A DNA stretch of 64,000 nt from Eledone cirrhosa (GCA_964016885.1 OZ024740.1:358112001-358176000); one strand, 5' to 3'. Shown: positions 4,131 to 63,293, counted from the first letter of the stretch. Made by a program: numbers and translations. The notes: a model not told the origin generated them from the sequence alone.

Positions 4131-4358
4131 TATTGTTATACTTTGGGAGGGCCATGTTGCCAATAAGAAACACACGCACCAGTTGCTTTCACTTCAATTT
4201 ATTATAATAAATTTATAAATTTATTATAATAAATTGAAGTGAATGCGACTGGTGCGTGTGTTTCTTATTGGCAACATGACCCTCCCAAAGTATAACAATA
4301 TCGGTTTCAACACACGTTTTCAGATAAAGAATCTTGCTAAACAAATTCAGAAACGAAA
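4131..4358. mobile_element. Palindromic mini-element, 'MTLPKYNN' family
   Basis: Near-perfect palindrome 4131-4300 with centre near 4215, plus a 58 nt tail at 4301-4358. (TA)n on both sides. Homologous to the ends of 25777-27170. Confidence 0.75.
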
Positions 4359-4426
4359 TATATATATATATATATATATATATATATATATATATATATA
4401 TATATATATATATATATATATATATA

Positions 4427-6822
4427 ATATAAGATCAAAAGATGGTTAAAAGAGTTCCAAGTATTTTATTATGCGCATTTCAAAAACAAATATCATCATG
4501 GGATGATATTTGCGTTCTCATCAGATAAAATAGGGCGACATGATATGAAGCTTAAAAAACACTTGCGAGCAGTGAAGTGTTAAATCAACATATGAAAAAT
4601 AAAGTAAGATGGATATATGAGGTTGGGAAAAAAAGGAGGGGTGGGGGTAGGAAAAGGTAAGGAAGAGGAAGAAAGAAAATAAAGGATGACGAGGGAGGAG
4701 TATAAGAAGGAAATGATGGGAGAGGAGGAGAAATGAGTGATAGAGAGAAAGAAATAGCCTTTACAACTGAGAAAACATTGTCTCACAGAGAGAAATTAAA
4801 AACCGGTGAAAGATAATAGTTAATTTAAAAAGATTTTGTAATTAAAAGTTAATGAGGTTTATGAATGGGGATGTTTATGATTAAAGAAAAAGGAATTAAG
4901 AATAGTATTTATTTAAGGTTTATATATTGAAGGGTTTAATAATATGTGCGAAAAAAAAAGAATTTATTAATATGTATTATTAAAATAAAAATATTAAGGA
5001 TATTAAGGATATAATGTGAAAGAAGGAGAGATTGAATGAATTATGAACTTAGAGGAATTAGTTAGGGTTTAAGTTTGTTTTTATGTATTGTAATATGTAA
5101 AAGTAAATAATAGGTTTAATACCAGCACGGAAGGAGAGAAGAAAGAAGAACATTTAAGGAGGACAAATATATATAACGTCAAAAAGTATATATGTTTACA
5201 CAAATTTACTAATGGTAATATTATTATATATAAAAAAAAATATAGTTTGTATGGCCAAGAATATAAGGAAAAATGGAAAATACTATAGTGAGTAATAATA
5301 TGAATTAAGAAGTAATTGAGAAGTAAAAGTTACAGATTAAAGATTAGAAATTAAAAAAGAAAAAAGGAAGAAAGGAAAAAAGAAGAAAGATAGGGGACCA
5401 CTAACGACATAGATGAGTAAATTGTATAATATAATATACTGAAATAAGGTAGAAAGATGGGTATATTTGTAAAAGATATAAAAGCATTTGAGAAAAGAAG
5501 ATTTTAAACTAATTAGGTATTGAAATATTAGCTGTATACTTTATGGAAAGTTCTATGGGATTTATGCAAGCAGAGCGAAAATAAATCCGTACGTCAATTT
5601 ATTATAGAATTAAAATGAGATATAATGGTAAATTTCTCGGCTAGGCAGAGATTACATGTTCTGGATAGGGAAGAATTCCGGTAAGGAAAGGTGTTGCAAA
5701 CCTTCCTCCAAGAGATGTTATAGTTAATATTTTTGTCTTTTAAGGACCATATGAGTTCCGAGGGTGCCGTATTAGTTCTTTTAAGTTGGTATTTAAAAGA
5801 CGAATTGTGATTATAAAATCTTGCTTTAAAGGAAGTGGAAGTGGAACCGAAATAGGTAAAAGAATTCGTACCAGTTATAACCTTACATTCGTACACTAAG
5901 TTTTTATCAAGACATTGGTTATTAAGAGGACATTTAGTTCTAATAGGGCAATTACATTACGATTAGAGAAATTAACAGAGTTATTAACAAGTGACCTAGT
6001 ATTATTTATAGAAGGAATTGGATTGGAGAAATTATTTACGATAGGAACTATAGTTTCCTGATTTAGATTGGTGTTATGAACATTCAACGAAGTTACGTTT
6101 GACGTCGTATTTAAATTTACTGAATCTAGCCTAGAGTTAACATTGACGTCGGGTTTACTATTGCTATTATTATTTAATATTTTATTATTGTGTTTAGAGA
6201 TAATGTTACAGATGTTGGAAGTGGTTGAATAAGAGAATTTGATTGTATGTTTGTTAAAGATCTTCCTATAGATATGCAAGGGAGGGAAGTATTTATCTAT
6301 GAATAGTTTAGGAATATTACTAGTAATAGATAGAGAAAAGGGAGCATTATACCAAATCATATTTTTGTATCTAGGTCTTTTATTTAAGTTATTGGAATGT
6401 TAATAATTACCTATTTTACTATAATTCCTTCGATGATTGGTTTCTTTACTGTATTTAATTTTATCAGGATAACCGGCTTTGGAAAGCGCATTATTATAGT
6501 AATTGGCATTAGCGTCGAAGATAACTTTATTAGGTGATAGATTTGAGATTCTTTTTTCAAAATTACTGACTATAGAATTTTTAACGTTAGTGGGGTGGTT
6601 AGATTTAAAATTAACATAATTTAGATTCTCATTGTCTTTATGGTAAGGGTAATATAGGCCAGTGTCAAGATTAAGGGATATATCCAGGAAGTTAGCTAGT
6701 TTGACGTTGTTATCAAATTCAATTTTAAGGTTATGGTGCTTAAATAGATCAAGTATATTGTTCTTAATAATATTAAGGTTAACTAAGTTACAGTTTAAGA
6801 CAGTAAAAAGGGCATCGTCACT
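4427..6822 (-). mobile_element. Penelope-like element, Hydra-clade-like, 5'-truncated
   Basis: Broken ORF: RT thumb (DDALF...NFLDISLNL...YPYHK...SNHP), linker WYNAPFS, nuclease YFGSTSTSFKARFYNH...IWSLK...CNLCLAEK. T-rich 3' UTR, HHR at the end, (TA)n on both sides. Confidence 0.85.
4464..4530 (-). ncRNA. Type I hammerhead ribozyme
   Basis: TTTTAT CTGATGA GAACGCAAATATCATC-CCAT-GATGATATTTGTTTTT GAAA TGCGCA TA ATAAAA. Canonical core, palindromic stem III. Confidence 0.9.
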
Positions 6823-8129
6823 TATATATATATATATATATATATATATATATATATATATATATATATATATAAGAAACAAGGGGCTGTGTGGTTAGTT
6901 GAGAAAGTGTATTTAGAAATAAAAGGAAAGCACAAACAGGGACAAGTCCCTTCTAGCAGACAACTGAAGAGGGGATCTGTCCCATGTTTTTGCTTTCCTT
7001 ATATACATATATATATATAACATATATGTGTGTATGTATGTGTGTTTATACACTCATGAATATCGAAACTCTTTTCTTTTTGTACTTAAAAATAAAATGC
7101 CTTCCCAAATTTCAATATATGTATGTATAGATTAATGGATGGATGTACACTCCTTTATATTGAAACGTCTTTTTGTGCTTTAATGAAAAAGAGGGTGCCC
7201 TACCTCATTATTATTCCAACACCCACATTCCAATATATTTACAAACAATTTTCTTCTAAAACCTGTCGGTCTACTTTGAAATTCATAAATGGTTGTTAAA
7301 ATGAAACTTGTAGCAATACAAGTTTCTCTTCATCTTCTTCATAATCAGTTATTACAAGGCTGTGACTAAATTTCCTTCTACTAATCATGTTTATTCAGTT
7401 GCTCACGAAAACCATGTATTCCATGACTCACAAATCTGTTTTTTTTTTGTTTTTTTTTTTACTTCTTCCTCCCATTCTTCGACTTTGGATTATTTTTACT
7501 ATACCTTTAGTTCAAATTAACAAAGGAAACTCTATATGATCATAGTCTTCTCCCTCAAACAACATCTTAAGAATAGACACAATAGTTGATATAGGCTTCT
7601 AAAAAGACACGACTTGAATACCTATTGATCATATATTTCGACTAAATAAAATAACGGTCAGTATATTTAACTCAGTCGTACCTACATCTAATGTAGCAGT
7701 GACTTCATCAAGGAAGGACCAGTATTCTGACTCTTGTTTGGTGCATAAACTTACATCGCTCCCAGAAACCTATCTTTCAGCCTAAGCTTCAAGAGGCAAA
7801 TCCTCCCTCCTAATGGGATCCAGTTCACAACACATTCTGACAGTCAGGGGCTTGTGAGTAACCCCACCCCCATCAGTGCAGTAATTTCTGGCGCCATAAC
7901 TGAATAGTGGAGTTTCTATCCTCCATCCAAATCTAAATTATCAGAGCCACGGAACTAGTTCCTGCTCTATACCTGTTTGGGCTGTAATGTGCCAGGTTCC
8001 AACTGTCACTGTTTGTTCTCTTCCGAACCCTCTTTGGAGTTTCGGGACAAGCCTCCCAGGACAGGTCACAGGCCCATCACCAGTTTTTGTAGACTGCAGT
8101 ATACTTTTCGAAAGGCCTAAACGCGTCCC

Positions 8130-61905: not shown

Positions 61906-62495
61906 TATTCTACTATGTCTATCCTGGCTATTATACTAAGAAATGCGTCGAAATAATTGCAAAGAATTAAATGTTTTTAGAACTCTCATCTGTCAACTCA
62001 ATTTGTTCTTTCTCTCTCCCCTGCTCACCTCAAACTCTCTCTCTAATACTACACACACACACACACAGTAGCTCTGGAAAGTGGACGTAAGATGATGGTG
62101 AAGATGTTCATGATATATGTATGAGTGTGTATGTGTGTGTATGGCCATGTAAATATACATGCATATTACTTAGATTCAATAAACCAATAAAACAATAAAT
62201 AATGTTTTATTCATCACAGATAAAACCAATTGTCTACCTTCCTGTTCAAGGTACAACACATCCAGTTTCTATTTCCACAGTGAAAAAAAAATAAAATAAA
62301 ATAAAGGTATCAAATATTTTAATGTTTACTAGTTAGTGTCTTCTTTAAAAACAATAACACAAAATATTCGTAATTGATTCCGAACTTTTATTCGGATTTA
62401 CGCAGGACTTTTGGACAAATTTCTGGTTATATTGGGTCTCCAAGTATAATTGTTTCCTTTTTTATTATTTCATTACATAATGTACATATATATGT

Positions 62496-62656
62496 AACAA
62501 AGAGGGTGTGGTAAGATACCAGGTGGACCATATCGCACCAGAGTACTCGATACTTGGGATAGTAGAGTGGGTAATATGAAAGGATTCAGGACCCCTGAGT
62601 TCGGATCTAGCTGTCGAAACGGCCGGAGCTCAGCAGTCGGGGTCCTGAATCTTTGA
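62496..62656. mobile_element. 'MVHLV' family mini-insertion
   Basis: Reversed tail, then arms GATTCAGGACCCC / GGGGTCCTGAATC enclosing the HHR 3' half. Confidence 0.75.
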
Positions 62657-62995
62657 TGTGTGTGTGTGTATATATATATACACACACAAGGGAGAAAGCA
62701 AATTATTTTGCTTAACAGAGTATCTATGCATACATGCACATGTACATATATTAATGTGTATTTGTGTGCGTGTGTGTGAGTGTGTATTATAGGTATGCAT
62801 GTATCATGAAATACATGTCAGTTTCATTCCCGTTTGAGGAATGTGAAAGGACTATGTGCATTACCGGTTCTATTGAGAGTGAACTGGAGTCTGCAACTCA
62901 ATGCTATTACGAAGTCCGTCTCGTGTTGGATTGTATTCCAGGGTTAAGACGGCTGTAGTGTGGTGGAGAGTGTAGATGATGTAAGTAGAATCGAA

Positions 62996-63293
62996 GTCAG
63001 TGTTGCAGCATGTGTATACACTTTATTGGCATATTACAATTGTTTCAATACTGAGCAGCTCAGGGTACAATCATAGTGACCGGGGCCAACACCTCTTCGA
63101 CGATTCTTCAGATATGCGAGTTTATATGTGCGAAGACACATATAAACTTTATCTTTGCACATATCAACTCGCATATCTGAGGAGATGTCGAAGAAGAGTC
63201 GAGCCCTGGTCATTGTTATTGTACCCTGAACTGATCGATATTGAAACAATTGTAATATGGCAATAAAGTTTATAAATATGCTGTGACACTGAC
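62996..63293. mobile_element. Diverged palindromic element with an HHR in each arm
   Basis: Right arm 63172-63259: CATAT CTGAGGA GATGTCGA-[insert]-TCGATATT GAAA CAATTG TA ATATG. Left arm 63030-63116(-) has core CTGAAGA. Confidence 0.82.

Follow-up and report, generated by a model that had tools for sequence, protein, structure and literature searches.

The DNA analysed here is a 64 000-nt stretch of the Eledone cirrhosa genome (GCA_964016885.1 OZ024740.1:358112001-358176000), called the window below, with positions counted from its first letter. An initial annotation had described at least nine insertions of Penelope-like elements (PLEs) that share one design: two 5'-truncated copies are fused back to back and read outward into microsatellite, one arm stopping at an internal site (the short end) and the other continuing for about 40-100 nt (the long end). 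Self-comparison and reading of the ends bore this out for all nine stretches, each being a back-to-back inverted pair with both 3' ends entering microsatellite; the arms of the family G pair overlap too briefly for blastn, and this pair was read directly from the sequence. Copies elsewhere in the genome end at the same two sites and their pairs nearly always combine one long with one short end, and priming at both ends of the break from two fixed sites is well supported.

The nine insertions fall into seven families, A to G, with B and C each present twice (B1, B2, C1 and C2). The tail, by which the long end extends beyond the short end, measures 38-101 nt (E 60, A 68, B1 38, C1 80, D 101, F 61, B2 45, C2 80 and G 90), and the arms of a pair differ by 1-11%. 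The three junctions originally quoted (TTCC|TAT, AACA|ATAT and ATCG|TATAT) are correct, giving 3, 4 and 5 nt of TA microhomology for C, E and G, respectively, but a length of 'usually 2-5 nt' holds for only five of the nine insertions: the full range is 0-5 nt, with 0 nt at the short ends of B1 and B2 and 1 nt in A and D. The family F long end enters (AC)n instead of (TA)n. The short-side TA runs of the A and F copies are only ∼10 nt.

The leftmost pair (4131-4358, family E, Neptune-like) has its short end on the left and its long end, with the 60-nt tail, on the right, joined at an AT-rich palindrome of the template; this 229-bp form is present at five separate loci. In the family A pair (10359-11591, Hydra-type) an inverted long arm (10359-10895) meets a short arm (10896-11591) containing a GIY-YIG-type remnant (10893-11354, plus strand) and a hammerhead ribozyme (HHR) with a palindromic stem III. 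The remnant was identified by its CxCX5C linker and SYVG motif; Pfam gave no match. The first family B pair (14926-17049, canonical CCHH type) has its long end on the left, with a 38-nt tail, its short end on the right, and a GIY-YIG domain in both arms (Pfam PF01541, E 1e-6 each), and is followed by a family C mini pair (17397-17603, Hydra-type) with a long end and 80-nt tail on the left and a short end on the right. A tenth insertion of the same design, absent from the initial annotation, lies at 18664-19352 and defines family H: a left-pointing 540-bp unit, with an HHR-like motif read by eye, reads through a long site and ends at a short site, and its inverted arm ends at the long site at 19352. 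The very young family D pair (19665-22831, Hydra-type) consists of a long arm (19665-21065) and a short arm reaching 22831, 99% identical over 1304 nt, with a 101-nt tail and a GIY-YIG remnant (21034-21540) in the short arm. Further right are a family F mini pair (41987-42185; long end left against (AC)n in the element sense, short end right) and a pair of a family B subfamily (47016-49372), whose long arm carries reverse transcriptase (RT) and GIY-YIG remnants on the minus strand to ∼48760 (Pfam RVT_1, E 2e-8; GIY-YIG, E 4e-5), with the short arm on the right and a 45-nt tail. The second family C pair (51926-53105) has its short arm on the left (51926-52158) and its long arm on the right, where the tail (53027-53105) opens with an ACTC...GAGT stem; the family G mini pair (61043-61349, Hydra-type) has a short end and HHR on the left and a long end on the right, and its 90-nt tail also opens with ACTC...GAGT.

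The assignment to PLEs was supported by RT and GIY-YIG frames, pseudo-long terminal repeat (pLTR) structure and, in most families, Hydra-clade motifs. RVT_1 and GIY-YIG lie within one frame in family B. In family C, an open 717-aa frame at locus L281 contains YRDD and a C-terminal YIG-type domain and has 2123 relatives at E<=1e-30, the two named ones being labelled hypothetical proteins. The frames of D, G, A and E (the last read from L315/L313) are broken, with RT/GIY-YIG motifs as in B and C; Pfam gave no RT family in the D and G frames, and coding sequence was not seen in any copy of family F. Judged by their motifs, A, C, D and G are Hydra-type: all have the CxCX5C linker (CSCRKPEAC, CNCPDRSIC, CNCRNPESC and CNCRNKSNC, respectively) and no CCHH between GIY and YIG, and C and G have an RWK-like motif and DKT (LRWR and SDKT in C, IRWR and SDKT in G); neither was seen in A or D, whose N-termini were left untranslated. 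At nearly all ends TA is the first or second flanking repeat, as in the (TA)n criterion of the Hydra clade. The description of that clade in section 11 of PMC8557442 (Craig et al. 2021) matches in the RWR/RWK-like motif with DKT, CxCX5C, lack of CCHH, C-terminal GIY-YIG, HHR and (TA)n targets, whereas the units are 'generally <3 kb' there and 3.4-4.3 kb here, the likeness being one of motifs; the same Hydra section is silent on tail length, paired ends and an initiation stem. Family E has CX4CxxC and two cysteines between VVY and YIG, spread across frameshifts, and is Neptune-like, and family B has GPKF, DKG, CCHH-type cysteines and a CX4CX6C linker, its placement in Neptune or Nematis being ambiguous.

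Fixed ends and their pairing across the genome

Genome searches were made with 97-126 nt of each family immediately upstream of the short end, a segment present in both arms. The best 30 loci per family were taken, from 40 scored of 110-1811 candidates, so the sample represents the copies most like the query; as the queries end at the short site, copies terminating earlier are under-sampled. Over the seven families, 201 of 210 matches stop at the short or the long site or continue through the latter, and nine end elsewhere. Thus independent copies reuse the same stop points, as originally claimed, and do not scatter at random.

Among these matches, 110 had no partner within 1.5 kb, and 100 were extended by 7 kb (seven off-site matches and three window copies were excluded). 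Altogether 113 inverted pairs were obtained: 105 long+short, three short+short, none long+long and five with an off-site end. The long+short class therefore makes up 105 of the 108 classifiable pairs (p=1.3e-27 versus random pairing). By family, it accounts for 19/20 classifiable pairs in E, 15/16 in F and 6/6 in B. The tally leaves out L125 (a spurious 20-nt partner), 16 family A pairs recovered solely by a long-end-biased query, and the D pair of the window; two long+short pairs outside the filters, L051 and L065, were not counted. Solo ends comprised 49 short and 39 long, which means roughly equal use of the two sites; paired at random, such ends would yield mixed pairs in about half of the cases. 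These counts support the proposal that both break ends were primed at two defined RNA sites, a proposal largely anticipated in PMC8557442 (legend of Fig. 2) and PMC11167929.

Read-through copies, which contain an open reading frame (ORF) in the order 5' pLTR, ORF, 3' pLTR and in which the tail is the start of the next unit, exist for B, C, D and G. Their far end and inverted arm were long+short in five of five (L342, L344, L345, L346 and L281); the far end was predicted from the inverted arm before retrieval, and L342, L344, L345 and L346 matched. A de novo scan of the 1.4 Mb of retrieved DNA, restricted to adjacent arrays, found 232 TA-flanked inverted structures, 219 of them asymmetric, which form 46 tail families, seven of them previously searched for. 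A miniature inverted-repeat transposable element (MITE) or another DNA transposon with terminal inverted repeats was considered and rejected, given this asymmetry and lengths of 119-5817 bp.

The initial annotation had also suggested that the paired design is the default insertion mode. Pairs are indeed common, but this was an overstatement, since 94 of 196 distinct terminal matches had no inverted partner in the DNA examined and 102 had one; a paired insertion can be matched twice, so that, counted by insertion, the paired fraction is closer to one third to one half. A search for hidden short partners at solo 5' junctions, using an 11-nt end motif of the same family, gave only four among 88 unpaired ends: the known pairs L051 and window D, and L162 and L306 in family E. 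Two solo short-end copies of family C, L102 and L113, carry nothing at their 5' junction but (TA)n(GA)n or an inverted remnant, 13-15 nt in length, of a long end, possibly abortive long-site priming. At L060 (C7, 57.83 Mb), ∼55 nt of a family B long end are joined back to back with a family A short arm, through either insertion of both families at a single break or nesting of one insertion in another.

Target-site duplication is masked by (TA)n. Reads and contigs at the young family D locus L150 and at window 10300-11700 gave no joint skipping the insertion. Among 125 pairs, paralogous empty sites yielded eight candidates, of which only L233 (family G) was clean, its TA measuring ∼8 nt and that of the occupied site 11+12 nt; a wider search with 365 ends found mostly nested insertions into TA runs of older elements. 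At L111 and L285 the same interrupted array occurs on both flanks, so those TA arrays pre-existed.

Origin of the arms and candidate signals at the start sites

In 117 of 122 pairs the two arms lie directly against each other, many of them overlapping by 1-8 nt, as expected if the truncated ends of two cDNAs had been joined. Of these 117 pairs, 42 have the short arm as the longer one, 27 the long arm, and 48 have arms equal within 20 nt (lengths in family F are rough); the bias towards a longer short arm is not significant (42 versus 27, p=0.09). In nine pairs the long arm stops before the short site. Since either arm may be the longer, and these nine never extend to the short site, neither arm appears to be a copy of the other, which indicates that both were primed from RNA. 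Arms of equal length are in excess (27 of 101 within 10 nt versus 8.8 expected by permutation, family F left out), with junctions that cluster at template palindromes in D and E. Because same-sense cDNAs can pair only at palindromes, this excess fits end joining and does not separate the models.

Non-CpG minor alleles are shared between arms in 33/35 cases in C, 10/10 in D, 21/37 in G and 30/77 in A, versus 0.09-0.18 when shuffled. The locus L346 (C3:4921146-4926497) is a 5.3-kb nested family G palindrome with outer ends long and short, both halves of which bear one private inner inversion junction. The shared alleles and the repeated junction point to two templates from one source, most simply one molecule. 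Raw arm-to-arm distances were uninformative (within pairs about as large as between pairs in A, C and D), since the matches had been chosen for likeness to the query, and an apparent pattern of one mutated arm per pair in C was discarded as an artefact of the same selection.

Although the flanks are mainly TA, the first repeat differs between the two ends in some families. In D, it is (TC)n at 11 of 20 long ends and non-TA at none of 24 short ends; in F, it is (AC)n at 13 of 20 long ends, and one of 23 short ends is non-TA, namely TC. Overall, 38 of 39 non-TA dinucleotide runs read TC or AC in the element sense. In the 26 pairs with a non-TA long end, the opposite side is TA in 25 and TA resumes past the run in 23. 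The D template at the long site reads ...ATCTATCT, containing TCT, and some F and A ends read ...ACATCTC and ...TATCTC. The simplest reading of these runs is 2-nt slippage at initiation. A ∼2-kb minisatellite at L369 (C4:80503900-80505900) has a 30-bp unit that matches the final 30 nt of the family A tail and is bounded there by an 8-nt direct repeat; its birth by slippage at the long start is possible.

In many families the tail opens with RCTC followed by GAGY. The strict motif was present in 31 of 68 clusters versus 294 of 16172 random places (1.8%), and NCTC...GAGN in 26 of 46 tail families after stricter clustering, although the stem families are related and the counts are not independent events. 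The outer pair is A-T in 13 families, G-C in 9, T-A in 2, G-T in 1, A-G in 1 and A-C in none (Fisher p=1.2e-5 on the A/G rows). The stem mostly starts 6-9 nt behind (3' of) the short end; in the family A example, ACTC...GAGT at approximately 10395-10415 (minus strand), the distance is ∼8 nt. Read-through copies of C, D, G and H, and of at least three further, unsearched families, have a like stem behind the long site. The initial annotation mentions neither this stem nor the non-TA repeats at long ends. Minimum-energy folding recovers it in five of nine cases (A, C and D at the short site, D and H at the long site). In Hydra-type families, this stem is a candidate signal for positioning or docking at the initiation site; for Poseidon in vitro, PMC11167929 describes a requirement for RNA 3' of the start sites. 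It is not a general cause of the asymmetry, since B, E and the families with ∼40-nt tails are asymmetric and have no such stem. The literature searched held no report of the pairing statistic, the initiation stem or initiation stutter, although supplements and subscription papers (Arkhipova 2006; Evgen'ev and Arkhipova 2005) may contain some.

A proposed mechanism for paired insertion and its alternatives

In the mechanism that we favour, at a probability of about 0.55, a dimer of the RT-endonuclease cuts both strands of AT-rich or (TA)n DNA and primes each end from a different site of one RNA. The two family-specific 3' ends (38-101 nt apart in the window) are fixed, and long+short pairing between arms of the same subfamily is near-obligate; the arms were probably primed separately, given that neither is consistently the longer and that some long arms fail to reach the short site. 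In Hydra-type families, the two stem modules on one transcript might each dock one subunit. Priming would need no more than 0-5 nt of TA pairing, and the RT may often stutter at the start of its template, with (TC)n or (AC)n as the product. The trailing RT would displace the leading cDNA, both would stop early, and the same-sense cDNA ends would be joined at short inverted microhomologies, often a template palindrome; solo copies would arise where one priming fails or is lost. For the dimer, the one source is a prediction in PMC11167929.

Several observations weigh against this mechanism. About half of the sampled ends are solo. A real long+long pair exists at L231, dropped by the 80% identity filter, and a tiny one at L366 was found in the long-end-biased search; there are also the three short+short pairs, one of which, L312, combines arms of two subfamilies and might reflect two events. 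In B (3/8), E (6/22) and F (0/8), families in which selection for likeness to the query will have inflated arm discordance, the arms showed no significant sharing of haplotypes, and the data do not separate one RNA from two sibling RNAs of the same locus. Copying one stretch of RNA twice (1.3 kb in the window D pair) needs strand displacement, which is hypothetical for a PLE RT. The (TC)n and (AC)n runs might have belonged to compound targets before insertion. Families B and E and those with ∼40-nt tails follow long+short without an RCTC stem, folding fails to give the stem for G at either site, for C at the long site and for the window F copy, and read-through copies of F and A were not found among 18 and 11 pattern matches, respectively, nor did any of E turn up. 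Finally, the start sites mapped in PMC11167929 did not differ between the two strands, and no pairing rule is put forward there.

Two RNAs of the same source might instead be held in an asymmetric protein dimer, with one subunit set to the long site and the other to the short site. This would avoid double copying of one RNA, fits separate priming and fixed ends, and accommodates the shared haplotypes if sibling transcripts are co-packaged. It is nevertheless unlikely: the asymmetry has to be built in, whereas tandem stem modules supply one more simply, and no clear different-subfamily pair was seen among the 20 C and 15 D pairs scored. The version in the initial annotation, in which a palindromic HHR stem III couples two RNAs that supply both templates, fared much worse and is now very unlikely. 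Families A and D do have a palindromic stem III and G a wobble-palindromic one, and PMC4209133 proposes that PLE HHRs work as dimers; but the stem is not palindromic in E (AGAACT in 21 of 23 motif matches), nor by eye in the window F copy, and no HHR was found in B, yet E, F and B all follow the long+short rule. A symmetric RNA dimer moreover predicts 1:2:1 pairing instead of the 105/108 seen. By pattern, the HHR motif was found in 37/48 copies of G, 23/57 of E, 10/48 of D, 8/89 of A, 1/48 of F, 0/39 of B and 0/66 of C; C, F and H are HHR-like by eye only, and Rfam gave no hammerhead within the window. Judged from approximate blast ends, only two of 192 arms end at the predicted HHR cut and 163 run past it, so cleavage does not usually set the end of the template. 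In vitro, according to PMC11167929, uncleaved RNA is a substrate, and HHR catalytic mutants and RNAs trimmed to +20 still insert; Naiads are described in PMC8557442 as having the same structure without HHRs.

Both arms might also start at one site, the tail difference arising from endonuclease resolution or trimming, as suggested in PMC8557442. Trimming would yield a strictly one-sided tail, and the D. virilis endonuclease, as cited in PMC11167929, needs the tail for recognition. We consider this improbable, however, as short ends occur alone no less often than long ends (49 versus 39) and bear template microhomology and, in some cases, stutter repeats, and as direct mapping in vitro gave two RT start sites (PMC11167929). 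A single cDNA that folds back at a template palindrome, copies itself and stops at the short site would account for the equal-length arms and their clustering at palindromes, and rare short+short pairs such as L126 could arise in this way. As a general route it is refuted by the 42 of 117 pairs with a longer short arm and the nine long arms that never reach the short site, and palindrome-only annealing of same-sense cDNAs explains the equal-length excess; we give it very little credence. Fold-back chimeras are also a known artefact of libraries and assemblies. Such an origin has a negligible probability here, as the arms diverge by 1-11%, the ends are family-specific and asymmetric, and family A inversion joints occur many times in public short-read contigs, with inversion joints also in three raw reads from another study; none of these contigs bridges the window's own junction.

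Parts of the favoured mechanism have parallels elsewhere. In L1 twin priming both cut ends prime on one RNA, with the second primer at a variable upstream site and non-overlapping arms; here, both starts are fixed and close together, and the arms copy the same sequence. In the R2 model, two protein subunits are placed by two RNA elements. Telomerase repeat addition, and the slippage-made 3' repeats of some long interspersed elements, recopy a short template register onto a DNA 3' end, whereas the putative additions here are of 2-nt units in variable number at an internal start site, read from genomic scars alone. A more speculative extension, against which we judge the odds to lie, is that a Hydra-type RNA with two tandem initiation modules, each a start site with a stem 6-9 nt beyond it, loads both dimer subunits, so that every complete integration would be a programmed twin priming, with telomerase-like repeats that seed and extend the microsatellites used as later targets.

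The paired design itself is not new. The canonical unit of endonuclease-containing (EN+) PLEs, exemplified by Pen2a_Av, has an inverted pLTR with a tail optionally on one of them (PMC3846280), and PMC8557442 describes a frequent inverted 5'-truncated copy, an often one-ended tail and Hydra elements in (TA)n, leaving the mechanism open. The tail of that unit is given as 30-40 bp and 'optional' (PMC3846280; PMC8557442 Fig. 2), compared with family medians of 28-174 nt here, where pairing is near-obligate by count and where, as a rule, both arms have been truncated to a short length. Poseidon PAc in vitro (Frangieh et al. 2024, PMC11167929) is alike in having two internal RT starts that bound the tail, AT-rich two-strand cleavage with both strands extended, a predicted dimer and dispensable HHR cleavage. 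It belongs to another clade, and the text consulted, supplements aside, reports no pairing rule, inverted products, repeated stem module or repeat addition. The accessible parts of PMC4209133, bioRxiv 10.64898/2026.07.22.740005 and PMC13282606 contain nothing on pairing. New here are thus the quantitative pairing rule across families, the long tails, the covarying stem at the start sites and the signs of repeat addition. Tandem and inverted ends, one-sided tails and microsatellite bias of PLEs are named as an open problem in PMC8557442, and the pairing, the same-source arms, the stem and the repeats make it testable at the bench. If the stuttering is real, telomerase's closest relatives add repeats during ordinary integration and help to build microsatellite-rich genomes.

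Older inverted structures and other elements in the window

Older inverted structures, with arm identities of 72-91%, lie at 62996-63293, which has TA on the right side only, and at 1315-1811 and 2358-3364. Single-arm PLE-like remnants, with RT or endonuclease-like frames beside TA or TAT runs, are found at 4431-6823, 11600-13800 and 42241-44020. PLE ends often face one another across a single TA run, consistent with repeated insertion into earlier flanks. The paired PLE units may be mistaken in annotation for MITEs or microRNA hairpins, and the Rfam matches in the window are mostly sub-threshold microRNAs.

Two Helitron segments ∼90% alike, with Helitron_like_N and PIF1 domains, occupy 23482-25717 and 27874-32150. 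Between them, at 25717-27236, is a symmetric 1.5-kb fold-back with 93% identity, each arm of which includes an E-related long end, its TA flank and part of a C-related tail; with its flank duplicated, it looks like a DNA-level inverted duplication and not a PLE insertion. A non-coding family at 58031-59891 consists of ∼370-bp units, tandem and inverted, with TA-rich inner repeats, and its asymmetric 51-70-nt ends elsewhere in the genome suggest a non-autonomous PLE-like element. At 44421-45400, a reverse-strand frame resembles a DNA-transposon protein, with no Pfam match. An abundant 190-200-bp repeat resembling a short interspersed element and ending in (TAT)n is present at 945-1145, 38562-38756, 39217-39625 and 40324-40497, with further copies at 44021-44228, 46212-46494 and 61453-61905.

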